Shown here: positions 15,664 to 27,609 of the stretch, piece after piece
How the letters are laid out: each line of letters starts with the position of its first letter
How positions within the stretch are numbered: the stretch's first letter is position 1
NCBI GenBank assembly: GCA_945861755.1
Contig: CAMAVQ010000003.1
Coordinates: 5,689 to 69,688, forward strand
Direction: 5' to 3'
Source: Gemmatimonas phototrophica
GTDB taxonomy: Bacteria; Latescibacterota; UBA2968; UBA8231
Length of the DNA stretch: 64,000 nucleotides
Made by a program: the position numbers and the translations under genes
Notes under the pieces: generated by a model
What the model was told of the DNA's origin: nothing
The model's database searches: none
Seen by the model: the letters and a program-made list of their open reading frames with translations, nothing else

Positions 15664-16641
15664 ATGCCCCTCCCCCCGCAGCTACAGCGCGCCATCGAAC
15701 AGGAGACGGGCCGGCATCCTGCCAAGGCCCTGAGCCAGGCCGCTGCGGAACTTTCCGAGGTGTACCGCGCCGGACACCTGGCTAGCGGGGCTTTCCTCCC
15801 CTCCGAGCTGCACCGACTCGCGTACGCGGCTGTGCGGCTGCCGGCCACCTTTGCGGCGGTGCGTGCGGTGTTGGCGGAAGTGGGCCGTCGGTTGCCCGAC
15901 CGGCCACTGGCGAGCTTGCTCGACTTGGGCGCCGGCCCGGGCACAGCTGGCTGGGCAGCCGGGGAAGTCTTTGGCCAGTTGGAGTCGCTCACCCTGATCG
16001 AAAGGGACGCCGGGTTGATCGCGCTGGGCAAAGCGCTGGCGCGGGCCGGGGAACACGCCCTATTGGAACAGGCCCGCTGGGTGCAGGGGGATCTGCGCGT
16101 GCTGCCCGCTTTTGCGCCCTGCGATTTGGTGGTCAGTTCCTATGCGCTGGGAGAGTTGGGGGAGGAGGCTGCCAGTGCGGTGCTGCGGGCGGCCTGGGCG
16201 GCGACCTCTCAGGTGCTGGTGGTGGTGGAGCCGGGGACCATGCGGGGGTTTGCGCTTATCCGCCGGCTGCGCGATGAGCTGATCGGGGCCGGTGCCCACT
16301 TGATCGCCCCCTGTCCGCACCACGAGGACTGTCCCTTGCCGGCGGGAGACTGGTGCCATTTCTCGCAGCGCCTCGAACGCTCGCGGCTGCACCAGCGCCT
16401 CAAGGAGGTCGCCCTGGGATACGAAGACGAGAAGTTTTCGTACGTGGCAGTGGCCAGACATCCGCTCCAGCCCGCCCCGGCCCGCATCCTGCGTCACCCG
16501 CTGCGCCACGCCGGCCACACCGAATTGCAGTTGTGTACGCCGGCGGGCCTGCAGACCTTGACGGTGACGCGCAGCGACAAGGCAGGGTGGAAAGAGGCGA
16601 GGAAAGCGGAGTGGGGCGATGAGTGGCGGGGTGGGGGCTAA
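15664..16641 (+). CDS. Rsm22-like SAM-dependent methyltransferase
   Basis: 325 aa. SAM motif LLDLGAGPGTAGWAA and C-terminal Cys/His cluster APCPHHEDCPL...WCHF, typical of bacterial Rsm22-family proteins. Confidence 0.7.
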   Translation: MPLPPQLQRAIEQETGRHPAKALSQAAAELSEVYRAGHLASGAFLPSELHRLAYAAVRLPATFAAVRAVLAEVGRRLPDRPLASLLDLGAGPGTAGWAAGEVFGQLESLTLIERDAGLIALGKALARAGEHALLEQARWVQGDLRVLPAFAPCDLVVSSYALGELGEEAASAVLRAAWAATSQVLVVVEPGTMRGFALIRRLRDELIGAGAHLIAPCPHHEDCPLPAGDWCHFSQRLERSRLHQRLKEVALGYEDEKFSYVAVARHPLQPAPARILRHPLRHAGHTELQLCTPAGLQTLTVTRSDKAGWKEARKAEWGDEWRGGG

Positions 16642-19600
16642 CGCACCAGCGCCAGCCGCTGCACCGCCCCGAAGTTCCCCGCCTGTAGCCGGCAGAAGTA
16701 CACCCCCGAAGCCACCTCCCGTCCCTGCTCGTCGCGGCCGTCCCAGCCATAGGTGTACATCCCCGCCGGCAGCGAGGTGTCCAACAAGCGGCGCAGCGGG
16801 CGGCCCAGGGGGTCGTAGATGGTCAGGGCGGCGCGTCCTTCGCGGGGCAGCTCGAAAGGGAAGGTGGTCCGGGCATTGAAGGGGTTGGGGAAACCGGGAT
16901 GGAGGACCAGGTGTTTCGGCAGGGAGACGTCCCCTTCCTCGACAGGGGTCTGTTCGGGCGCTGCGTCGAGGAAGGGCTGCCAGGCTACCTGGCCCTTGAA
17001 GAGGGCGGCGATGGTGATGCTGTCGGTGGTGCCCCAGTAGTTGCCCTGGGCCGGCAGGATTTGGTCCGAGAGGTTTTCGACGGCAATGCGGTTGTCGAGG
17101 AAGGTGTTGCGGGTCAGGGTGGGCACTTGGGTGCCGCTGACCTTGAGGGCGGTGAGGTTGTGCTCGAAGGTGTTGCCCTCGACCTGGGGGGAAGAGGCCT
17201 GGGACTCGAAGCCCACCCCGGCGTTGCTAAAGGTGCTGGTGCGCACGGTGAATTTGGGAATGTTTTCGAGGCGCAGGCCGGCGTTGTTGAGGAAGTGGCT
17301 CATCTCGATGGCCCCGGAAGCGCCTTCGCGCAGCACCAATCCGGTGCCGATATTGTCGGCGAAGTTGGTGGTCCCCACCTCCACTATGGGCACGGCGGCC
17401 ACCACGGCCCCGTCGCCCAGGTTGCGCTCCACCTGCACCTGCTCAAAGGTGAGCCGCTCAAGGCCGCGGGCCCGCAGGCCCTCGTGCTGGTTGGCGCTGA
17501 GTTGGCTGTCGTGGATCTCTACCACCCCCTCCCAAGCCTCCAGGTCCAAGCCGTGCTGGGTGTTGCGCGTCGAACTGCTATTCCATAGCTCGATCTTCTG
17601 GCCGCGCCCGCCCACTGCTTTCAGACCGGAGCGCGGGTCCTTGGGGTCGAGCAGGCCGTTCTGCTCCAGGCGGAGGTTCACCGCCTCCAGGGAGGCGTTG
17701 CCCAGCGAGATGCCCTCCTGGCCGCATTGCTGCACGGTTACGTCGCGCAGCGAGAGCAGGCCGCCCCCCTGCACATAGATGGCCGGGGTGGTGAGGTGGA
17801 AAAAGGTGGTCCCGGTCACTTGGGCCGGCCCGTTGAGGGTCAGCGACAACCCGGCCAGGCCCTGCTGGATGCGGCCGCCTTCGAGCGCAAAGCTGCTGGT
17901 GGCAGAGACCTCGCCGCTGAACCCGTACCCGCAGCGTTCTATGGTAGCGTCGTGGACCTTCACCTGGGCGCCAGGGGCCAGGCGCACCCCGAACCACAGG
18001 TCCTGATTGCTGGTCTGGGCCACGGTGAAGGTGCCGCCCTCGGCGCTGAGTTTGCCTTCGACCACCAGTTCGGACAACGCTGGGCTCAGGCCACTGCCAC
18101 TGAGGTCTGCAGGGGCGAATTGCAGCTGGGCGTTGGAATCCACCACCAGCTCAGCACCGACGGGGATGATCAGATCCTGAAAGAGGGACTGCACGCCCGA
18201 AAAATGGGTGATGCCCGCTGGCAGCCGGCTGCGCACCAGCCCGTAGCGGGCATTGACCAGCTGGAGCTGGTCGGTGTCCAGGGGCTGGCCGTCCATCAGG
18301 AAAAGGCCGAGCCAGTCGTCGGCGCGCGGCACCGTGGCCGCTGATTCGCAGCGGATCTGGCCCTGCACCTGGAGGCCGCCGTAGACGATCAACTCGCAGC
18401 GGCCCGCGTCGAAACCAGTGCGCCGGCTGTCGGCAGCAGCAAAACGGATACGGGTGCCCTCGGCCAGGATGAGCTTGACCCCGGGGTCCACCACCACATC
18501 CCCGTCCAGCTGCACCGTCCCCGACCAGGTGGTGTCGGTGCTGATGTGGCCGGGCAACTTCTGGTGCAGGCGCACATCGCAGCGCATGCGCGTGCCCTCG
18601 CGGCGGATGTTTTCGAGGGCCATGCCCAGGGGCAGGTTGCGGCTGAAGCCGGTGTGGGCACTGAGGGAGGGGTTGGTGTCCCAGGCCAGGCGGGTGAAGC
18701 GCTGTCCGTCGAAGGGGTCGGTGGCATCGCCCTCGTTGCCGTGGTGGGCGGCGGTGTAGGCCTCGTCCTTGGCCCAGAAGTCGAGGTTGTCCCTGCCTCT
18801 GACTGTATCGGGTTGCCCGTCGGGGTAGCCCTTGTCCGCGTAGAGCCCGTCGGCGCAGACCAGGTCCACCTGCGGGTGGCGCTCCTCGTCGTTGTCGGCC
18901 CGCTCGTCCACGTGCCAGACCAAGAGGCCCTCGCCGGGAATGCTGCGGTTGTAGTAGCTGCTGGCGCGGCGGCGGTTTTCGAGGAGGAAGCACTCGTCGG
19001 CACTGAGGCGGATCTTGTAGATTTTATTTCCTATGGCCACGTCCTCGATGGCCAGGTCGGGTTGGTCCTGGGTGAGTTCGACGACCTCCACCCAGCCTAA
19101 CTTGGCCAGGGCCCAGGCGCAGAAAGCATTGGGGCCATCCTCCACCCCCCAGCCCTGGGTCCCTGCCGAGGTCATCAGGCACCACTTGCCCACCCCCGCA
19201 CTTTCCTCCGTCGGGTCGAGTTGGCCGGAGGCAGTCACCGAGGACTGGTCGAAGAGGTCGGGCAGGCCCAGCACGTGGCCGAACTCGTGGCACATGGAGG
19301 CGGCGGTGACGCTGAAGGTGTGGCCCCGCTGGGTGGTGCCGCCAAAACCAGAAAAGCGACTGCGGATGTGAATGGTCCCGCCTTTGGCCGCCGGGTCGTT
19401 GCTGATGAAGTCGGTGTCCAATCCCAGGGAGGCGTAGCCAGTGGCCCCGCTGATGAAGAAATTGCGGGGCACGGTGAGCAGGTTGATGAAGACCACATCC
19501 ACGTACCCGTCGTCATCGCCCGAATTGGGAAGCCCGTCCGGGCCGTCATTGTCGAAGCGGCCGAGGTCGGCGTCGCGGTCAGCTTGTACGAGAATTTGGC

Positions 19601-19943
19601 GGTTGAAGAGGCCAAAGTTGCCCTGGACCCCGGCGCTGGGGGCCACGTAGGCCGCAGCTGGCTGCAGGGAGGAGTAGCGCCGGGGCAGCACCTGGCCGGA
19701 GACCTGGATCTTGCCCCGCGACATCTCGCGGTAGAAGTGGGCGAAGCTGCCTGGCACGCCGAGATTGAACAGATCCGCAGCCCAGGGCGGGGCCTGGGTC
19801 TCGCCTTGGGCCTCGCCCTGGAACTTGGCGAAGATCACCAGGGCGTTGAGGGTGCCGCTGGTCTTGAGTGCAGAAGCCGGTGGCGGGGTCTGGGCTCCGG
19901 CTGCAAGGGCGGCCAGCAGGGCGCCCAGCAGCAGGGCTTTCAT
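16638..19943 (-). CDS. Secreted M6 (InhA-like) zinc metalloprotease with long beta-helix region and FlgD-Ig/Por-type C-terminal domain
   Basis: 1101 aa. Signal peptide MKALLLGALLAALAAGAQT and zinc motif HEFGHVLGLPDLFD. Paralogue of 2757..5504. C-terminus FPNPFN...WDGRDEQGREVASGVYFCRL. The start overlaps the stop of the 150-aa ORF (ATGA at 19940-19943). Confidence 0.85.
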   Translation of the reverse strand: MKALLLGALLAALAAGAQTPPPASALKTSGTLNALVIFAKFQGEAQGETQAPPWAADLFNLGVPGSFAHFYREMSRGKIQVSGQVLPRRYSSLQPAAAYVAPSAGVQGNFGLFNRQILVQADRDADLGRFDNDGPDGLPNSGDDDGYVDVVFINLLTVPRNFFISGATGYASLGLDTDFISNDPAAKGGTIHIRSRFSGFGGTTQRGHTFSVTAASMCHEFGHVLGLPDLFDQSSVTASGQLDPTEESAGVGKWCLMTSAGTQGWGVEDGPNAFCAWALAKLGWVEVVELTQDQPDLAIEDVAIGNKIYKIRLSADECFLLENRRRASSYYNRSIPGEGLLVWHVDERADNDEERHPQVDLVCADGLYADKGYPDGQPDTVRGRDNLDFWAKDEAYTAAHHGNEGDATDPFDGQRFTRLAWDTNPSLSAHTGFSRNLPLGMALENIRREGTRMRCDVRLHQKLPGHISTDTTWSGTVQLDGDVVVDPGVKLILAEGTRIRFAAADSRRTGFDAGRCELIVYGGLQVQGQIRCESAATVPRADDWLGLFLMDGQPLDTDQLQLVNARYGLVRSRLPAGITHFSGVQSLFQDLIIPVGAELVVDSNAQLQFAPADLSGSGLSPALSELVVEGKLSAEGGTFTVAQTSNQDLWFGVRLAPGAQVKVHDATIERCGYGFSGEVSATSSFALEGGRIQQGLAGLSLTLNGPAQVTGTTFFHLTTPAIYVQGGGLLSLRDVTVQQCGQEGISLGNASLEAVNLRLEQNGLLDPKDPRSGLKAVGGRGQKIELWNSSSTRNTQHGLDLEAWEGVVEIHDSQLSANQHEGLRARGLERLTFEQVQVERNLGDGAVVAAVPIVEVGTTNFADNIGTGLVLREGASGAIEMSHFLNNAGLRLENIPKFTVRTSTFSNAGVGFESQASSPQVEGNTFEHNLTALKVSGTQVPTLTRNTFLDNRIAVENLSDQILPAQGNYWGTTDSITIAALFKGQVAWQPFLDAAPEQTPVEEGDVSLPKHLVLHPGFPNPFNARTTFPFELPREGRAALTIYDPLGRPLRRLLDTSLPAGMYTYGWDGRDEQGREVASGVYFCRLQAGNFGAVQRLALVR

Positions 19944-20392
19944 GCCAGCAGGTCGAAACTAATGGCGGAGAACTGCAGCGCAAAACCGCCCTGGGTGCGG
20001 CGGGGATTGGCACTGGCCTGCAACAGGCGGCTCTGGTTGTCCGATTGCTGTAGGTGGTGACGGAGATTTAGCTGGCTGGCCTGGAGCAGGTGCAGGGCCG
20101 GGGGGTCCTGGTTGTTGCCGATCAGGCCGGCGGTGAGTGGGCTGGTGGTTTTGGTCTGGGCAGCCAGACTGGAGAGGAGGCCCTCGCCGCTGGTCGGCAG
20201 GTCGAAGAGCCCAGGGCTGGGATCGGCCTGAGCCGCCGAAGAGGTCCCGCTCACCCCCGGTGGCCCGCCGGTGGCCCGCAGCGAAGCGATGCCCAGCCCG
20301 TCTTTGACGCGGGCGGTCCCGGCGTTATGGTTGAGCCGCTTGATGAAGCGGGGGCCGGCGAAGGACTCGTCTTGTTGGAGCGGGGTCACCAT
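19940..20392 (-). CDS. Hypothetical 150-aa protein between pafA and the M6 protease
   Basis: ATG at 20390-20392, 6 nt after the pafA stop. The stop overlaps the M6 start. Hand-counted third-position G/C is 15/17 (20341-20390) and 17/20 (20161-20220) in this frame, clearly higher than the other two phases. No signal peptide and no recognisable motif; Gln/Ser/Gly/Leu-rich. Confidence 0.55.
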   Translation of the reverse strand: MVTPLQQDESFAGPRFIKRLNHNAGTARVKDGLGIASLRATGGPPGVSGTSSAAQADPSPGLFDLPTSGEGLLSSLAAQTKTTSPLTAGLIGNNQDPPALHLLQASQLNLRHHLQQSDNQSRLLQASANPRRTQGGFALQFSAISFDLLA

Positions 20393-20398
20393 GGGCGA

Positions 20399-21811
20399 TC
20401 AGTCAGGGGAAGGGCGCTGAAATTCGCGGACGAATTCCTCTAGCTCAAGATCGTAGGTCTGGAAGGGATCGTCCAGGTTGAGATATTTCTCGTCCTCGAC
20501 GTAGATCGAATCCCACTCGATCACGTAGCGGGCCTTGTGGTTGGTCAGCGAGCGCATGACCGAGGAGCGGGCCCGGGCGCGGGTGTCCTGCGGGGGGGTG
20601 ACCATGGCCAGATTCACCCGCTCATCGTCCACTACCTTCTTGGTCATGCCGCGGCTGCGCAGGTCAAAGTAGAGCCCCTTGGCGGGGTTGAGATTGTGGT
20701 ATTCCAGATCCAGGCTCTGCACCCAGGGATCCTGCCAGTCGAGGCCCTCGGCCTCGATGAAGGATTGCAGCAGCCACTTCTTGGCCACCCAGTCGAGGCG
20801 GTCGATCAGGCTCATGGGATCGACCGCCAGGGCCTCCAGCACAAAGCGCCATTCGCGCAGCACCCAGTCGATCTCTGGCTCCCGGCCGCGCAGGTGGCGT
20901 TCGGCCAGTTCCAGGTAAGTCAACTGCAGGTCGATGGCGGTGGTGTGGCGCCCGTCCTCCAACTTTATCACCCACTGGTAGGTTGGATCGCGGGAGATGT
21001 CGCGGATGGCATCCACCGCATTGTCCAGGCGGATATCGGGCCAGATCTCCTGCTCGAGTAATTCGATGAGCACCGCGGTGGTCCCCACTTTGAGGGCAGT
21101 GACGTATTCGGACATGTTGGAGTCGCCCACCAGCAGGTGCAGCCGGCGGTACAGGCCCCAGTCGGCCAGCGGCTCGTCGCGGGTGTTGATGATGGCCCGG
21201 CTGAACTGGATCCACTGGTAGATCTCGGTGACGATATGGTCGGCCCGCTGGGAGAGCTGAAAGTCGATGCGCGGGGTTTCGGGGCTGCCCGAATCGAAGA
21301 CATCGTTGTGGCAGCCCACCCGGCCGGCCCCGGCAAAGATCTGGCGGGTGACAAAGAAAGGCAGCAGGGCCGGCAGCAGTCGCTGAGAGAAGGGGACTTC
21401 TCGGCGCACCAGATAGTTCTCGTGGCAGCCGAAGGTGGCCCCGGTGTAGTGGTCGATGTTGTTCTTGAAGAAGGAGGCGGTCTCGGCCAAGCCCAGCTGG
21501 CTGAGGGCGCGCTGCACAATGAGTTCGCCGGCCCGGTCGGAGGCCACCAGGTCGAAGAGGCCGCGGCATTCGGGGGTGGCAAATTCGATGTGCCCCATGT
21601 CGAGGTAAAGCCGCCCGCCGTTGAAGAGAAAGCCGCCGTTGCCCGGCGGCTCGTCGCGGCCCCGGTAATGGGTGTCGACAAATCCCAACCCTTCGCGGCC
21701 GAAGACCCGGTCCTTGGCCCGCGCCGAGATCAGGTCGGGGCTGTGGAAGGGGTCGCCCTCGGGGGGCATACAACCGTATTCGATTTCGAGTCCGAAGATG
21801 CGGTTGCGCAT
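20399..21811 (-). CDS. pafA: Pup(UBact)-protein ligase PafA
   Basis: 470 aa. FGLEIEYG, FLFNGGRLYLDMGHIEFATPEC and FGCHENYL motifs of the Pup ligase/deamidase family. It lacks the Dop-type N-terminal insert and sits downstream of prcA, as pafA does in mycobacteria. Confidence 0.88.
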   Translation of the reverse strand: MRNRIFGLEIEYGCMPPEGDPFHSPDLISARAKDRVFGREGLGFVDTHYRGRDEPPGNGGFLFNGGRLYLDMGHIEFATPECRGLFDLVASDRAGELIVQRALSQLGLAETASFFKNNIDHYTGATFGCHENYLVRREVPFSQRLLPALLPFFVTRQIFAGAGRVGCHNDVFDSGSPETPRIDFQLSQRADHIVTEIYQWIQFSRAIINTRDEPLADWGLYRRLHLLVGDSNMSEYVTALKVGTTAVLIELLEQEIWPDIRLDNAVDAIRDISRDPTYQWVIKLEDGRHTTAIDLQLTYLELAERHLRGREPEIDWVLREWRFVLEALAVDPMSLIDRLDWVAKKWLLQSFIEAEGLDWQDPWVQSLDLEYHNLNPAKGLYFDLRSRGMTKKVVDDERVNLAMVTPPQDTRARARSSVMRSLTNHKARYVIEWDSIYVEDEKYLNLDDPFQTYDLELEEFVREFQRPSPD

Positions 21812-21825
21812 GGCCAGCCCTCGCT

Positions 21826-22587
21826 TCAGGAGGTGAAGGGCGCCAAGGTCTCCTCCAGGGAGGCCGCCGGCAGAAAGCGAAACTTGGTGCGGGTGGGCAG
21901 GGTGCGGTCTAACACGGCGGCGTCGAAGCGGCGGGTGCGCACGGCCTTGCCGAGAAAGGTGCGCAACTCCTCTTCGTCCGGCTCGCCTTCTGCCTCGCGC
22001 TCGGCCAGCAGGGCACCCAGGCCCCAGGCCTCCAGGGCTCGGCGCAGCGCTTCCTTGAGGGAGAGGGAGGCGGGGTCCAGGTCGGCCAGGCGGGCAGTGA
22101 TGGCCTCTTCGCTCTTCCGGGTGCCGGCCACGGCCGCCGCTTTGCCGGCACTGGCAAAAGACCCGTCGGGCTCGAGGGTGTAGAAACGCTCCTCGGCGTG
22201 GATCGGGTCCAGCTCGGCGACCATGACCCGGGCAATATAGGGGGAGCGGAGGATCTCGTCGAAGGCGGTTTTCATCAAAGGCCCCAGGCCCAGGTGTACC
22301 AGGCGCTGCAGGGAGACATCGCTGGCCGACAGGTTGAAGGCCTCCAGGTGGGCGATGTCGATGACCACCTTGCGCAGCTTTTCCAGGTCCGCCGGATGGC
22401 CGATGGCGGCAAAGGAGATGTTGTTGTAGACCTCAAAGATTTTGCGCGGCCCCGGCGTGGTGGTCAAGAGCAGCACCCCGTCGGCGTACCCCAGGCCCAC
22501 CACCGGACTGGCGCCGCGCAGCTGGTCTTCTAGATACTCGCGGCGGTTGCGGATGGCTTCTACCCAGCGGTAGGGGTCTTCGAGCAT
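21826..22587 (-). CDS. prcA: 20S proteasome alpha subunit
   Basis: 253 aa. Ntn-hydrolase-fold pattern without an N-terminal Thr after processing (SPVVGLGYADGVLLLT...IFEVYNNISFAAIGH). Sits directly after prcB. Confidence 0.85.
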   Translation of the reverse strand: MLEDPYRWVEAIRNRREYLEDQLRGASPVVGLGYADGVLLLTTTPGPRKIFEVYNNISFAAIGHPADLEKLRKVVIDIAHLEAFNLSASDVSLQRLVHLGLGPLMKTAFDEILRSPYIARVMVAELDPIHAEERFYTLEPDGSFASAGKAAAVAGTRKSEEAITARLADLDPASLSLKEALRRALEAWGLGALLAEREAEGEPDEEELRTFLGKAVRTRRFDAAVLDRTLPTRTKFRFLPAASLEETLAPFTS

Positions 22588-22597
22588 GGGGCGCCTT

Positions 22598-23368
22598 TCA
22601 GCCGGAATTCTTGCCGAGGGCCTGGTAATGGGCCTCCAGGTCGGCTTCGGGGATAGAGGTGATGCCCGTCCGGTCCAGGCGCATCACCTGGGGGAAGATC
22701 CGGGCGCGGGAGCGATACCCGCCGGTGGCGGTGTCGTATTCGGCGGCGGTCTCCAGCAATTTGAGGGCGAGGGCGACGGCGGCCGGCTCGTCGAGGCTGG
22801 CCAGGGGTTCCGGCCCCCAGCGGTCCTGGAAGTAGACTGCGCCCCGGATGGTGGGCGAGCCAGAACCGGTGGCGCAAAAATCCACCGACTCAAATTGGGC
22901 CCCCAGCAGGTCGTAGAAGAAGATCCGGCCCCCTTCCCGGGGGTCGAAGGCGGCGAGGATGGGCACCACCGCGCCGATGCCCTGCATGGCCAGGCCCAGG
23001 TTTTCCCGCAGCAGGCGGGACAGGGTGCGCAGCTTGCCGTCCAGGCTCAATTCTTGTAACTGAGAGCGGCGGTAATGTTGGAAAGAGATTTCGAGCAGGC
23101 GGGCGATCTCGTAGCCGATGGCCGGCGAGCCCGAAATGGCCAATACCACGCTGTCGTCGATGGTCAGCACTTTGTCGGCCCGGTCATAGACCACGGTGTT
23201 GCCCATGGTGGCGCGTCGGTCGCCGGCCACCAGCACCCCATCCCGGTAGCGCAGGGCCAGGATGGTGGTGCCCTCGATGGTTTCGAGGTGTTCCGGGTGC
23301 TTGAGGGATGCGAAAGGAGCGGGCAAGAGCTGGCCGCGTTCCCGCAGGAGGGTGAAAAAATCCTCCAT
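22598..23368 (-). CDS. prcB: 20S proteasome beta subunit (with propeptide)
   Basis: 256 aa. The propeptide ends ...HLETIEG and is followed by TTILALRYRDGVLVAGDRRATMG (catalytic Thr1 context). GSGS motif (CATGSGSP). Collinear similarity to the mycobacterial PrcB sequence as I recall it. Confidence 0.9.
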   Translation of the reverse strand: MEDFFTLLRERGQLLPAPFASLKHPEHLETIEGTTILALRYRDGVLVAGDRRATMGNTVVYDRADKVLTIDDSVVLAISGSPAIGYEIARLLEISFQHYRRSQLQELSLDGKLRTLSRLLRENLGLAMQGIGAVVPILAAFDPREGGRIFFYDLLGAQFESVDFCATGSGSPTIRGAVYFQDRWGPEPLASLDEPAAVALALKLLETAAEYDTATGGYRSRARIFPQVMRLDRTGITSIPEADLEAHYQALGKNSG

Positions 23369-23371
23369 GTC

Positions 23372-23572
23372 CTACTGGCCCGTGCGCTGGCGGTACCGCC
23401 GGGCCTGGTCCGGGTCGACCCTGCGCATGCGGCGCATCAGCTCGTCGGTGCTGGGGCGCTCGACCTTGGGGCGGCGCGGACCTTCGTCATCGCCGCCGCC
23501 TTCGCCCGGTTCGGCGGGGCTGGTGGGGCGGGGGGCGCGGTCGCGCAGTTGGAAGAAGTGATCGTCAGCCAT
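23372..23572 (-). CDS. pup: Prokaryotic ubiquitin-like modifier, UBact-type Pup homologue
   Basis: 66 aa and apparently disordered: Gly/Pro/Asp/Glu/Arg-rich with a helical C-terminal part (STDELMRRMRRVDPDQARRYRQ). Ends in RTGQ directly before the stop. Located between dop and prcB. Confidence 0.85.
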   Translation of the reverse strand: MADDHFFQLRDRAPRPTSPAEPGEGGGDDEGPRRPKVERPSTDELMRRMRRVDPDQARRYRQRTGQ

Positions 23573-23583
23573 GGGGTGCCTCC

Positions 23584-25113
23584 TTAGGCAGAGGTCGGCA
23601 ATTTTTCGAGCAGGGCCTCGACGCTGGGAGCGCTGTCCAGCACCTGATTATAATACGCCGCAGCTTCCGCGTCCACACACGCTTTGAGGTCCACCACGCG
23701 GGTGCGGCCGTTGACGGAAAATTCGATGCTGTCCCAGTTGAGCGAGCGCACCGCCGCGCCGAACCGCTCCAGGCAGCGGCCGCGAAAATAGGCGCGGGTA
23801 TCGGCCGGCGGCCGGGTCATGCCGCGCAGGACTTCCTCCTCGCCCACCAGCCGGGTCATCTGCCCCTGGGCTTCGAGCAACAGATACAGGCCCTCCTCGG
23901 GATCGATGTTGCTGTATTCCAGATCCTGGCTCTGCAGCCAGACGCGGTGGTCCGGGTTTTCCCAATCCAGCCCCTCGGCCTGGGCAAAGGTGTCCAGCAG
24001 CCACTTTTTGGTGACCCAGTCGCAGCGGCCCAGCAGGTCGAGGGGGTCGTTCCCCAACTTTTCGAGGGCTTCCTGCCACTGGGCCAGCACCCAGTCGGTC
24101 TCCGGGTCGCGGCCCTGGGCCAGGCGCCCGGCCGCTTCCAGATAAGAACGCTGGATTTCGAGGGCCGAGACGGTTTTTCCCCCAGCCAGGGGCACTGCCC
24201 ACTGGTGGGAGGGGTCGCGGGAGAGGGTTTTGAGGGCGGCCACCGGATCTGCCAATTCCCAGCGGGGCAGGGCCCCGGCCTCTAAAAGGTCTAGCACCAG
24301 GGCGAGGGCACCCACTTTGAGGGCGGTGGCCCACTCCGACATGTTGGCGTCGCCGATGATCAGGTGCAGGCGGCGGTACTGGTCGGCATTGGCGTGCGGC
24401 TCGTCGCGGGTGTTGACCAGCGGCCGGCGGGTCATGGTATCGACGCTGGCCAGGGTCTCGAAGAAATCGGCCCGCTGCGAGAGCTGGTAGGTGGAGGCCC
24501 GGGCCTGGGGATCGCACTCCACTCCCACCTTGCCGGCCCCGGCGTAGAGCTGGCGGGTGACCAGAAAGGGTATCAGGCCCTCGATCACCTGCTGGAAGGG
24601 CAGTTGGCGGGGCAGGAGGAAGTTTTCGTGGCAGCCGTAGCTGTGTTCGGCGAAATCGGTGTTGTTCTTGTAGAGGCGCACCAAGCCGCCGCCGGCGCGG
24701 GTGGCGCTGCGCCGGGCGGCGCAGTGCAGCAGGATGCGCTCGCCGGCCCGGTCCAGGGCCACCAGGTCGAAGAGGCTGTGGCACTCTGGGGTGGAGTACT
24801 CGGGGTGGGTGTGGTCGTTGTAGAGCCGGGCCCCGTTGCTGATGATCAGGTCGCTCTTGAGGTCCTTTAAGGGGATTTTGCGCTGGCGGTCGCGTTGCAG
24901 GTGGACGGTCTCGTCCTGGTCGTTGAGCAGCTCGTCCACCTCAAAGCCGCGCATGTCGCGGCGGGGATTCTCCAACTGGTAGTCCCAGCGGGCGACGAAG
25001 TCCTCCACGAGGTAGCAGCGGATCAACTCCATGGACTCGACCACCACGTCCATGTCGTCGACCCCGTCCACCTGGATGCCGTATTCGGTCTCCAAGCCAA
25101 AAAGCCGCCGCAT
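23584..25113 (-). CDS. dop: Pup(UBact) deamidase/depupylase Dop
   Basis: Starts at MRRLFGLETEYG (ATG 25111-25113, 5 nt after the mpa stop). RWDYQLENPRRDMRGFE resembles the Dop-specific N-terminal segment. NGARLYNDHTHPEYSTPEC and YGCHENFL. It is the longer paralogue (509 aa) and sits between mpa and pup. Confidence 0.88.
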   Translation of the reverse strand: MRRLFGLETEYGIQVDGVDDMDVVVESMELIRCYLVEDFVARWDYQLENPRRDMRGFEVDELLNDQDETVHLQRDRQRKIPLKDLKSDLIISNGARLYNDHTHPEYSTPECHSLFDLVALDRAGERILLHCAARRSATRAGGGLVRLYKNNTDFAEHSYGCHENFLLPRQLPFQQVIEGLIPFLVTRQLYAGAGKVGVECDPQARASTYQLSQRADFFETLASVDTMTRRPLVNTRDEPHANADQYRRLHLIIGDANMSEWATALKVGALALVLDLLEAGALPRWELADPVAALKTLSRDPSHQWAVPLAGGKTVSALEIQRSYLEAAGRLAQGRDPETDWVLAQWQEALEKLGNDPLDLLGRCDWVTKKWLLDTFAQAEGLDWENPDHRVWLQSQDLEYSNIDPEEGLYLLLEAQGQMTRLVGEEEVLRGMTRPPADTRAYFRGRCLERFGAAVRSLNWDSIEFSVNGRTRVVDLKACVDAEAAAYYNQVLDSAPSVEALLEKLPTSA

Positions 25114-25118
25114 GGGGA

Positions 25119-26840
25119 TCAGACGATCCTTCCGGACTGCTTTTCCGGGCGCTGTTCCTCGGGGCGCACCGGGGTGACCCGCACCACGTTTTCGGGGTCG
25201 TAGTCGATGAGTTTGAGCCAATCCTCCATCGCGTCGGTGGGCGGGAAGATCTCGTTCTCGCGGTACTCGGCGCGCACCGCCTCCTCTAGGTCCTGGAGGC
25301 GCAGGCCGGCCTGGGTGTCGCTCCCGGCGATGGCCCGTTTGATGGCCGACTCCTTGGCCCGCTGCACGATGGAGGAGATCAGCGCGCCGCTGATCAGGTC
25401 GCCCCAGTAGAGCACTTCGTGGCGGCCGCTGCGCAGGGTCACTTCGAGGAAGCGGTGGTCCTGGCTGCGGGCAAAGAGGGCCTTAAGGGCCCCGTCCACC
25501 AGCGCCTGGCGGGCCGCCTCGGTGTTGCCGGCGCGGGCGACTTCCTCGGCGTCGATGGGCAACTCGGGCGTCAGGTAGATCTCGAGGATGGCGCGCGAGG
25601 CGACCTGGTCGGGCCGGCGCACCTTGATCTTGCGGTCGATGCGGCCGGGGCGCAGGATGGCCGGGTCGATCAGGTCGTGGCGATTGGAGGCCAGGATGAT
25701 GACCACGTCCTGCAGTGACTCAATGCCGTCCATCTCGGTGCAGAACATCGGCACCACGGTGTTGGAGATATTGTGGGTGCGCATGGAACGGCGGGTGCCC
25801 AGGATCGACTCGGCCTCGTCGATGAAGATGAAGGGCAGGTACCCTTCCTTGCGTTTCTGGCGGGCCTGGGAGAAGATCTCCCGCACCATGCGCTCGGTCT
25901 CGCCCAGCCACATGTTGAGGATCTCCGGCCCCTTGATGTGCATGAAGTATTCTTTGAGTTCCAGCCCTTCCTGTTGGCGCAGGTGTTGTACCAGGTTGTA
26001 GGCAGTGGCCTTGCCGATGAGGGTCTTGCCGCAGCCGGGGGGCCCGTGGAGCAGGAAACCCTTGGGGGTGGAGTACTGGAACTTGGCGAAGAGTTCGGGG
26101 TGGAGGGCCGGCAGTTCGATGGTATCGCGGATGGCCTGGATGGCTTCCTCCTGGCCGCCGATCTTCGACCAGGGCATGGGCGGGATCTCTTCGAGGAAGT
26201 GCTCCCTGCGCTCGCGGGGTTGTAACCTTTCGAGGGCCACCTTGAAGGTGGGGTCCACCCGCACCTCGTCACCCACCTTGAGGTCTACCTCTTGCAGGTC
26301 CGCCGAGCGCACCAGGACCAGGTCTTGGGTGCCATGGGCCTGGCCGATGCGCAGCCGGCCTCCGTCCAGCAAATCGGCGATCTTGGCCACCGGGCCGGTG
26401 GGGTTGTAGTCGAGGGAGCCCACCACCGCATAGGCCTCGTTGATCAGCACCCGGCTGCCTACCTTGAGCTGGGCCAGGTCCACACGTGGGTCCACGTTGG
26501 CAAAGTACTCAGTGCCACCCACAAAGAGGTCGGCGATGCCCTCCCTGGGCGAGCCTAGGAAGATGCCGATGCGGTTGGCCGGGGCGGTGACCTTTTCGAG
26601 AGCGGCCTCCAGTTCGATCAGGGCGTGGCGGGCTTCCTGGAAGGTCAGTTCGCGCTCCAAGAGCAGACGCCGCAGCTGGTAGAGCAGCGGCCGCACCGGG
26701 TCGCGGTCGGGCAGCAGCAGCAGGGCCTGGTCCACCAACTCCAGGGGGCGGTCGTCTGGTTCGTACTCGACGGCCTCGTCCACGGGCTCGAAATCGTCTT
26801 CCTCGCCGCGGTCGCGGTAGTCGCGGTCCTTTTTGCTCAT
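25119..26840 (-). CDS. mpa: Proteasome-associated AAA+ ATPase (Mpa/ARC)
   Basis: N-terminal coiled coil, OB-like region (VGSRVLINEAYAVV, VGDEVRVDP), Walker A GPPGCGKT and Walker B FIFIDEAES. ATG at 26840 (MSKKDRDY) is preferred; a GTG alternative at 26873 would overlap lepB. The C-terminus is ...EKQSGRIV. Confidence 0.88.
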   Translation of the reverse strand: MSKKDRDYRDRGEEDDFEPVDEAVEYEPDDRPLELVDQALLLLPDRDPVRPLLYQLRRLLLERELTFQEARHALIELEAALEKVTAPANRIGIFLGSPREGIADLFVGGTEYFANVDPRVDLAQLKVGSRVLINEAYAVVGSLDYNPTGPVAKIADLLDGGRLRIGQAHGTQDLVLVRSADLQEVDLKVGDEVRVDPTFKVALERLQPRERREHFLEEIPPMPWSKIGGQEEAIQAIRDTIELPALHPELFAKFQYSTPKGFLLHGPPGCGKTLIGKATAYNLVQHLRQQEGLELKEYFMHIKGPEILNMWLGETERMVREIFSQARQKRKEGYLPFIFIDEAESILGTRRSMRTHNISNTVVPMFCTEMDGIESLQDVVIILASNRHDLIDPAILRPGRIDRKIKVRRPDQVASRAILEIYLTPELPIDAEEVARAGNTEAARQALVDGALKALFARSQDHRFLEVTLRSGRHEVLYWGDLISGALISSIVQRAKESAIKRAIAGSDTQAGLRLQDLEEAVRAEYRENEIFPPTDAMEDWLKLIDYDPENVVRVTPVRPEEQRPEKQSGRIV

Positions 26841-26856
26841 AGGATAGGGACTCTCT

Positions 26857-27564
26857 TCAGATGATGACCCCACCCAGGCGGCTGTAGCGCACCCGGGCGG
26901 GCAGCCGCCAGAGGAAGGTGCCGGCCAGCGCGGGGATGGAGGCCAGGCCGGTATAGTAAGGGGGACGGGTGTCCGATTCCCACGACCAGTAGATGAGCAT
27001 GGCCTTGCCCTTGACCAGTTCCCTGGACACGGCCCCGAAATAGCGGCTGTCGGCGCTGTTGTCCCGGTTGTCGCCCATCATAAAGAAATGGCCGGGCGGC
27101 ACGGTGAAGGGGCCGAAATTGTCGCGTGGCTGGACCGTGGCCGGGTAGGTCTCGGAGTCGGTGTGTTTGGACAGGGGCGGGTTGGGAGAGGGCTTGCCGT
27201 CGACGTAGAGCACCTTGTCGATGACCTGGAGCTTTTGGCCGCCCACGGCCACGCAGCGTTTGATCAGGTCGCGGTCCGGATCGGTGGGGGAACGGAAGAT
27301 GACGATATCCCCCGGTTGGGGATCGCGCAGTCCAGGCAGGCGGAACAGGGTGTAGTCGGCCATGGGGATGTCGACGGGGGCCCCGTAGACGAATTTGTTG
27401 GCCAGCAGATAGTCGCCCACCAGCAGGGTGTCCTCCATGGAACCCGAAGGGATGTAGAAGGCCTGGACCACGGTGGTGCGGATGAAAAGGGCCAGGCCCA
27501 CGGCGATCAGGAGGGAGGAGGTGTACTCCTTGACGGTGGACTTGGGCGTAGGTTGACCGGGCAT
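26857..27564 (-). CDS. lepB: Signal peptidase I
   Basis: 235 aa from ATG 27562-27564. TM helix SSLLIAVGLALFI, catalytic Ser box IPSGSMEDTL, Lys box DLIKRCVAVGGQ and GDNRDNSADSRYFG. The long upstream extension of the ORF (to 28182) is discounted. Confidence 0.9.
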   Translation of the reverse strand: MPGQPTPKSTVKEYTSSLLIAVGLALFIRTTVVQAFYIPSGSMEDTLLVGDYLLANKFVYGAPVDIPMADYTLFRLPGLRDPQPGDIVIFRSPTDPDRDLIKRCVAVGGQKLQVIDKVLYVDGKPSPNPPLSKHTDSETYPATVQPRDNFGPFTVPPGHFFMMGDNRDNSADSRYFGAVSRELVKGKAMLIYWSWESDTRPPYYTGLASIPALAGTFLWRLPARVRYSRLGGVII

Positions 27565-27609
27565 AGGTAATTCTCTGGGGTTTGGAGAGGCGATGGCAAT
27601 GATGGTAGG

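Follow-up and report, generated by a model that had tools for sequence, protein, structure and literature searches.

A UBact-type ubiquitin-like tag in a six-gene proteasome operon of a freshwater Latescibacterota bacterium

UBact was reportedly first described in 2017 as a family of bacterial ubiquitin-like protein tags. The system with which it invites comparison is that of Pup, the tag of the mycobacterial Pup-proteasome system (Mpa, Dop, PafA, and PrcBA), which lays a helix of about 30 residues on the ATPase Mpa. In the Pup cycle, Dop converts the terminal Gln of the tag to Glu by deamidation, and PafA joins the gamma-carboxylate of this Glu to lysines; removal of Pup is likewise the work of Dop, which is kept even in species whose tag already ends in Glu (PMC3511204). 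Structural work placed the two helices of Pup in the groove of PafA and Dop (PMC8599861). On the unfoldase side, the pore loop of M. tuberculosis Mpa consists of K340-F341-V342-G343, the Lys of which is reported to be strictly conserved in Actinobacteria (PMC8755798), and the penultimate Tyr of the C-terminal GQYL motif has been described as the main 20S-binding determinant of mycobacterial Mpa. For UBact, the searchable literature returned passing citations only, with no experimental work on any member of the family; the 2017 UBact paper (Lehmann, Udasin, Livneh, Ciechanover) is cited in PMC5751360.

Here we analysed a stretch of 64,000 nucleotides (hereafter, the window) that carries on its minus strand the same six genes, in the same order, as the mycobacterial system. 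The order is Mpa-Dop-UBact-PrcB-PrcA-PafA, and the intergenic gaps measure 3 to 14 nt (Table 1). The original prediction had called a small ORF between dop and prcB a ubiquitin-like modifier of 66 residues that ends in RTGQ directly before the stop, and our translation agrees with it in coordinates, length, terminus, and position. The product is MADDHFFQLRDRAPRPTSPAEPGEGGGDDEGPRRPKVERPSTDELMRRMRRVDPDQARRYRQRTGQ, which ends in RRYRQRTGQ followed by the stop codon. Two of the longer frames in the operon reach too far into the genes upstream of them: a GTG-started Mpa ORF (to 26873) and a TTG-started Dop ORF (to 25221), which overlaps the Mpa gene.

Table 1. Positions of the operon genes, tag and ATPase elements, and flanking genes in the window
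Feature	Position	Strand	Description
UBact CDS	23372..23572	minus	66 aa plus TAG stop, ATG start; from translation, PF20513, NF033388, and 271 homologues
Shine-Dalgarno AAGGAGG	23579..23585	minus	6 nt 5' of the UBact ATG; overlaps the dop TAA stop; read directly from the sequence
Codons R63-T64-G65-Q66	23375..23386	minus	UBact terminus; by analogy with Pup, deamidation and then side-chain ligation are expected at Gln66
Predicted helix 1, TDELMRRMRR	23420..23449	minus	aa 42-51; AlphaFold2; paired by hhalign with Pup TDDLLDEIDD
Predicted helix 2, QARRYRQRT	23381..23407	minus	aa 56-64; AlphaFold2; paired by hhalign with Pup ...VRAYVQKG
Mpa/ARC-type proteasomal AAA ATPase	25119..26840	minus	573 aa from ATG 26840; acidic N-terminal 39 aa, short coiled coil, two OB domains, AAA module
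Mpa residues 1-39	26724..26840	minus	Net charge -10 from the likely ATG start
Mpa pore loop 1	25902..25916	minus	N-M-W-L-G
Mpa C-terminus	25122..25133	minus	G-R-I-V
Dop-type deamidase/depupylase homologue	23584..25113	minus	509 aa from ATG 25113; Pfam Pup_ligase; Dop-loop
PrcB, proteasome beta subunit	22598..23368	minus	Catalytic Thr after Gly33 (G-TTILAL); profile match
PrcA, proteasome alpha subunit	21826..22587	minus	Profile match
PafA-like ligase paralogue	20399..21811	minus	470 aa; Pfam Pup_ligase; without Dop-loop
Signal peptidase I gene	26857..27570	minus	Ends 16 nt before the likely Mpa ATG
150-aa ORF	19940..20392	minus	Rich in Q, S, L, and A; separated by 6 nt from the end of the PafA-like gene; last 4 nt shared with the following gene
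1101-aa protein	16638..19943	minus	Directly downstream of the operon; signal-peptide-like start, M6-type metalloprotease domain

To place the locus among its relatives, we scanned species-representative genomes. At least 538 loci carried a gene for a relative of the tag, and the best 80 of them (L001 to L080) were compared. The gene order is kept in all 80 of these best loci, as far as their contigs reach. The nearest locus among the best 80 belongs to a Candidatus Latescibacterota metagenome-assembled genome (MAG) from deep Lake Baikal, whose tag is 95% identical to that of the window and whose DNA is 94% identical over 13.3 kb; the window DNA is also present in lake-water metagenomes. The host is a freshwater Latescibacterota bacterium, outside Actinobacteria. 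The Mpa orthologue of L001 begins at the same Met as the Mpa start given in Table 1. Within the best 80 loci and the window, the tag ends in Q in 33 loci and the window, mostly in Latescibacterota, and in E in 47 loci, mostly in Poribacteria (this split by taxon was made by hand), and Dop is kept in all Q-ending and all E-ending loci.

The flanks of the operon carry further genes. Upstream lies a signal peptidase I gene. Downstream, the 150-aa ORF that follows the PafA-like gene has no Pfam match, and it occupies the same position in 13 related loci at 28-92% identity (tblastn); it possibly represents an accessory gene of this operon that has escaped recognition. The protein encoded directly beyond it also carries right-handed beta-helix repeats and a C-terminal FlgD-Ig-like domain.

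The G+C content of the window is 66%, and 109 ORFs of at least 50 aa overlap the 16 kb surrounding the tag. Because the DNA is G+C-rich and open frames are plentiful on both strands, the UBact ORF by itself proves nothing, and we considered whether it is a chance ORF or whether the true gene lies on the opposite strand. Spurious ORFs are frequent in the window, two plus-strand ORFs (23075..23587 and 23262..23561) overlap the tag, and one antisense frame across it is open in 61 of 80 orthologous loci. An open antisense frame is, however, expected given the rarity of TTA, CTA, and TCA codons, and neither plus-strand ORF matches any Pfam family even at an E-value of 1. The minus-strand frame, on the other hand, matches UBact profiles at E-values of about 1e-22, is preceded by a Shine-Dalgarno site, and has hundreds of homologues that terminate at the same residue. 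The substitution pattern also agrees with this frame: compared with 78 distinct orthologous coding sequences, the differences at codon positions 1, 2, and 3 number 834, 403, and 1864, respectively, and this concentration at the third position shows that the UBact coding sequence is under purifying selection. For practical purposes, the chance and opposite-strand readings are refuted. The UBact ORF is, moreover, the sole ORF within the window with a [TSG]G[QE] ending before its stop.

Contigs assembled from one freshwater metatranscriptome run lie on most of the operon, including 23485..24195, and none lies over 23212..23435. These are assembled contigs from a single run, in which DNA carry-over is possible; they show presence rather than absence and are weak evidence, bearing on transcription only. 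At the junction with the next gene, the TAG stop of UBact, a single GAC codon, and the ATG of prcB share one reading frame (23366..23374, minus strand), and the same spacing is found in L001. Read-through of the TAG would fuse the tag to the propeptide of the beta-subunit; the arrangement probably reflects tight packing only.

We then determined to which tag family the protein belongs. It scores 77.1 bits against Pfam PF20513, UBact (cut-off 27.8, E 8.6e-22), and 81.8 bits against NCBIfam NF033388, 'ubiquitin-like protein UBact' (cut-off 35, E 2.9e-23), clearing both curated profiles by about 50 bits, whereas the Pfam Pup profile (PF05639) gives no match to it at E-values up to 10. The assignment to the UBact type rather than to the Pup type, made originally from the terminus, is thus borne out by the profiles. 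Conversely, M. tuberculosis Pup, the sequence of which was checked against PDB chain 7px9_G, scores 79.7 bits with Pfam Pup and has no match to Pfam UBact, and a search of the PDB with the UBact profile returned no Pup chain, and nothing else, even at an E-value of 10. In a collection of 5.8 billion proteins we found 271 homologues, all of which carry PF20513; relatives at 64-73% identity bear the NCBI name 'ubiquitin-like protein UBact' in MAGs of Latescibacterota, Gemmatimonadota, and Poribacteria. Searching 1.84 billion representatives (50% identity) with a profile, we recovered only 175 clusters at E-values of 0.001 or lower; the family therefore occupies little sequence space and has sharp limits.

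The terminus is equally characteristic. The 120 closest homologues end in RTGQ (75), RTGE (44), or RSGE (1), and the 149 representatives at 50% identity end in RTGQ (66), RTGE (28), RSGE (14), or RSGQ (10), so that the R-[T/S]-G-[E/Q] signature given in the original prediction fits 120 of 120 and 118 of 149 sequences, respectively. The remaining representatives show single variants (RAGE, RNGE, RDGE, and RQGQ) or are visibly mis-called or read-through ORFs. RTGQ, the ending of the window protein, is the commonest in both sets, and a GG[QE] ending occurs in neither. Across phyla, 20 columns of the alignment are invariant and the last 25 residues are almost invariant, while the 10 N-terminal residues and the acidic linker of the window protein vary as they do throughout the family. 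Profile, length, R-T-G-Q ending, disordered N-terminal half, dop-prcB slot, and non-actinobacterial host all agree with the UBact family, and nothing of note differs. On these sequence criteria, the window protein is, with near certainty, a typical member of an already known family that has its own Pfam and NCBIfam models.

Given that UBact occupies the operon slot of pup, we asked whether it is merely a divergent Pup, a true member of that family whose separate label marks no real difference. The two tags have much in common: both are about 65 aa long and disordered, end in Gly followed by a terminal Gln or Glu, and are encoded together with Dop, PafA, Mpa, and PrcBA. An AlphaFold2 model of the window protein, built from a 37-sequence alignment, leaves the first ~40 residues without secondary structure and predicts only the two short helices listed in Table 1, separated by V-D-P-D, in agreement with the low-complexity N-terminus and helical C-terminus noted originally (pLDDT 73.5); its pTM of 0.27 means that the model gives no fold to compare. 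A profile alignment by hhalign runs collinearly to the last residue of both tags, pairing TDELMRRMRRV with TDDLLDEIDDV and ARRYRQRTGQ with VRAYVQKGGQ, although the match is weak (E 0.019, probability 2.5%). Within this weak alignment, the hydrophobic positions of the two-helix C-terminus are conserved (L45, M46, M49, and V52 of UBact against L39, L40, I43, and V46 of Pup), as is a Y-x-Q-[KR]-x-G-[QE] end, whereas the acidic D41, E42, D44, and D45 of Pup are opposite R47, R48, R50, and R51 of UBact.

The differences are nonetheless consistent across the family. UBact ends in T-G-Q and Pup in G-G-Q, and neither protein matches the Pfam profile of the other; as noted above, the UBact profile retrieves no Pup chain from the PDB. 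Among the 175 UBact clusters drawn from the 1.84 billion representatives, none ends in GG[QE] and none is acidic. The net charge of the last 30 residues is +4 in the window protein and +4 to +7 in the 79 other loci of the best 80, against -9 in M. tuberculosis Pup, and that of the whole protein is +2 against -12; the basic C-terminus that the original prediction set against the acidic one of Pup is therefore a property of the window protein and of its relatives alike. Helix 2 is about 4 residues shorter in UBact than in Pup, and four invariant prolines (P32, P35, P40, and P54) interrupt the region that forms the long Mpa-binding helix of Pup, which leaves no room in UBact for a helix of ~30 residues. 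We consider it likely that UBact and Pup share ancestry, and unlikely that UBact is simply a Pup; as the Pup family is defined, the window protein falls outside it.

The operon encodes two paralogues of the ligase family, and we compared both with their actinobacterial counterparts. Against solved structures, the upstream paralogue matches A. cellulolyticus Dop best and over its full length (408.8 bits, compared with 248.4 for PafA). Like mycobacterial Dop, it has a Dop-loop with the conserved Trp (W43) and the active-site residues, namely N-D-H-T-HPEYSTPE around the catalytic Asp and equivalents of T217, R227, H231, and H241, which have been placed in the Dop active site (PMC8599861). Its score against NCBIfam Dop (TIGR03688) is 469.6, just below the equivalog cut-off of 492.3. 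By these sequence features, the upstream gene is clearly Dop.

The downstream paralogue stands about as far from actinobacterial PafA as from actinobacterial Dop. NCBIfam scores favour PafA slightly (TIGR03686, 358.7 bits, compared with 349.8 for Dop, under both cut-offs), and solved structures favour Dop (288.7 bits, compared with 263.9 for PafA), so that overall scores do not separate the two. The positions specific to PafA comprise L-D-V-G-S after the strand, A-T-A after HPEY, and an alpha-loop of H-x-W-E-G-x-S-S-A (Hecht et al., 2020, PMC7947786). The window paralogue has L-D-M-G-H..A-T-P-E and an alpha-loop that starts with RADH, and it has no Dop-loop; some of these positions are PafA-type (the Leu, Gly, Ala, Thr, and the alpha-loop His) and others are not (the Val-Gly-Ser segment is one residue shorter, M-G, and the Pro is Dop-type). 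The rest of the alpha-loop resembles neither actinobacterial enzyme, and RADHIVTEIY[EQ]WIQFSR is almost invariant in related loci. In every locus, the upstream paralogue is Dop-type (N-D-H-[AT]-HPE[YF]S-T-P-E plus a Dop-loop), and the downstream paralogue forms a separate conserved class ([IL]-D-M-G-H..A-T-P-E with an alpha-loop of RADHIVTEIY). Because both motif classes are kept in every locus, the two genes encode two distinct enzymes, and we infer that the PafA-like one acts as the ligase. We also considered the charge of the Dop-loop as a mimic of the tag (median -3 in UBact loci, compared with -8 in the single actinobacterial comparator) and rejected it, as this comparison is too thin.

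Starting from the family membership, terminus, and operon context of the tag, and from the two enzyme paralogues with their diagnostic motifs, we consider it most likely that the locus holds a real UBact gene, encoding a Pup-like tag outside Actinobacteria, within a standard six-gene operon that would run a Pup-like cycle. Each biochemical step of this cycle is drawn by analogy with Pup. UBact would be made with a C-terminal Gln and would be largely disordered. Its last ~25 residues would form two short helices, seated in the binding groove of the Dop homologue, where Gln66 would be deamidated to Glu; the PafA-like paralogue would then activate the gamma-carboxylate of this Glu with ATP and join it to lysine side chains of targets. 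The Mpa-type ATPase would recognise the tag and thread the substrate into the PrcAB 20S core, and Dop would also take the tag off. The original prediction held that a terminal Gln has to be deamidated before ligation, which is established for Pup (PMC3511204), and that this tag needs the co-encoded Dop; a genuine Dop is indeed present, and the need for it would follow by a sound analogy with Pup.

In favour of such a cycle, Q-ending and E-ending tags both keep Dop, as is the case with Pup, and the predicted two-helix C-terminus mirrors the Pup helices bound in Dop and PafA (PMC8599861), with the two tags collinear to the last residue in the hhalign comparison. Against it stand the marginal similarity to Pup in the hhalign comparison, the PafA-like paralogue that is not clearly PafA by overall score, the linked Mpa that lacks both the pore-loop Lys and GQYL, which are tied to function in mycobacteria, and the prolines that bar a long Pup-like Mpa-binding helix. 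We also weighed the possibility that UBact is never attached covalently and acts instead as a small binding partner that, for instance, regulates Mpa, Dop, or 20S assembly or serves them as an adaptor. The searchable literature reports no UBact conjugate, and such extreme conservation over the last 25 residues would suit a pure binding peptide too. However, an invariant G-[QE] right before the stop is exactly what side-chain ligation needs, Q and E alternate, as they do in Pup, solely at the last position, and the tag always comes with two paralogues from the carboxylate-amine ligase family, of which one is Dop-type and the other has no Dop-loop. A purely non-covalent role is thus quite improbable, and the covalent, Pup-like tag remains our preferred reading.

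We also compared Mpa with its mycobacterial counterpart. The domain layout of the window protein (coiled coil, two OB domains, and AAA module) is that of mycobacterial Mpa, whereas its coiled coil is shorter and its N-terminal extension more acidic. Pore loop 1 reads N-M-W-L-G, in contrast to the mycobacterial N-K-F-V-G, and does so in 76 of the 76 UBact loci examined. At the C-terminus, G-R-I-V replaces the mycobacterial G-Q-Y-L, although the 20S genes are present; nearly all related loci end in x-V-I, with no penultimate Tyr.

The original prediction also proposed that the Arg-rich helix of the tag complements, in charge, the Mpa coiled coil, the N-terminus of which was said to be very acidic. 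The acidic N-terminus was confirmed (Table 1), and the equivalent segment, variable in sequence, is negative in 74 of 75 loci, reaching -25 in Poribacteria. Complementarity with the coiled coil itself was not supported, because the coiled coil falls within the 50 residues preceding the OB domain, and these are near neutral (-1 in the window, +1 in M. tuberculosis Mpa, and between -4 and +2 in 75 loci), with the acidic stretch located further towards the N-terminus. We therefore set aside the simple form of the idea. M. tuberculosis Mpa (N-terminal sequence verified against PDB chain 3m9b_A) is likewise acidic N-terminal of its coiled coil, less so (-5), which makes this acidity a matter of degree. 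Furthermore, in the hhalign comparison the Arg-rich segment of UBact aligns with the two Pup helices bound in the groove of PafA and Dop (PMC8599861), and the invariant prolines of UBact rule out the long helix with which Pup lies on Mpa. From these sequence comparisons, a different mode of recognition of UBact by Mpa appears plausible, and it is a fair hypothesis that the acidic Mpa extension would play an electrostatic role.

Taken together, the differences raise a further possibility: rather than being Pup systems with an altered last tripeptide, UBact systems may have been rewired coherently, such that the unfoldase recognises the tag in another way. This reading draws on a basic tag that invariant prolines limit to two short helices, on a strongly acidic Mpa extension of variable sequence ahead of a shorter, near-neutral coiled coil, and on the loss of the pore-loop Lys in all 76 loci together with that of the penultimate Tyr in the 20S-docking motif. 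We advance it tentatively, as a possibility somewhat short of an even chance. Should the changes be linked in function, tag capture, threading, and 20S docking would all depart from the mycobacterial model.

For annotation, the value of the present locus is small, as standard pipelines already name UBact and the window copy is typical. UBact-proteasome operons are, on the other hand, common in uncultured phyla, with at least 538 hits among species-representative genomes, and what interest remains lies in UBact biochemistry and in the coherent set of contrasts with the mycobacterial system. Each of these contrasts supplies a hypothesis: the tag is basic where Pup is acidic, Mpa has an acidic extension, its pore loop has no Lys, and GQYL is absent from its C-terminus. 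Trypsin, cutting after Arg63, would leave Thr-Gly-Glu on a modified lysine, and this predicted remnant of +287.112 Da (+243.086 for Pup) would allow metaproteomes already available to be searched.
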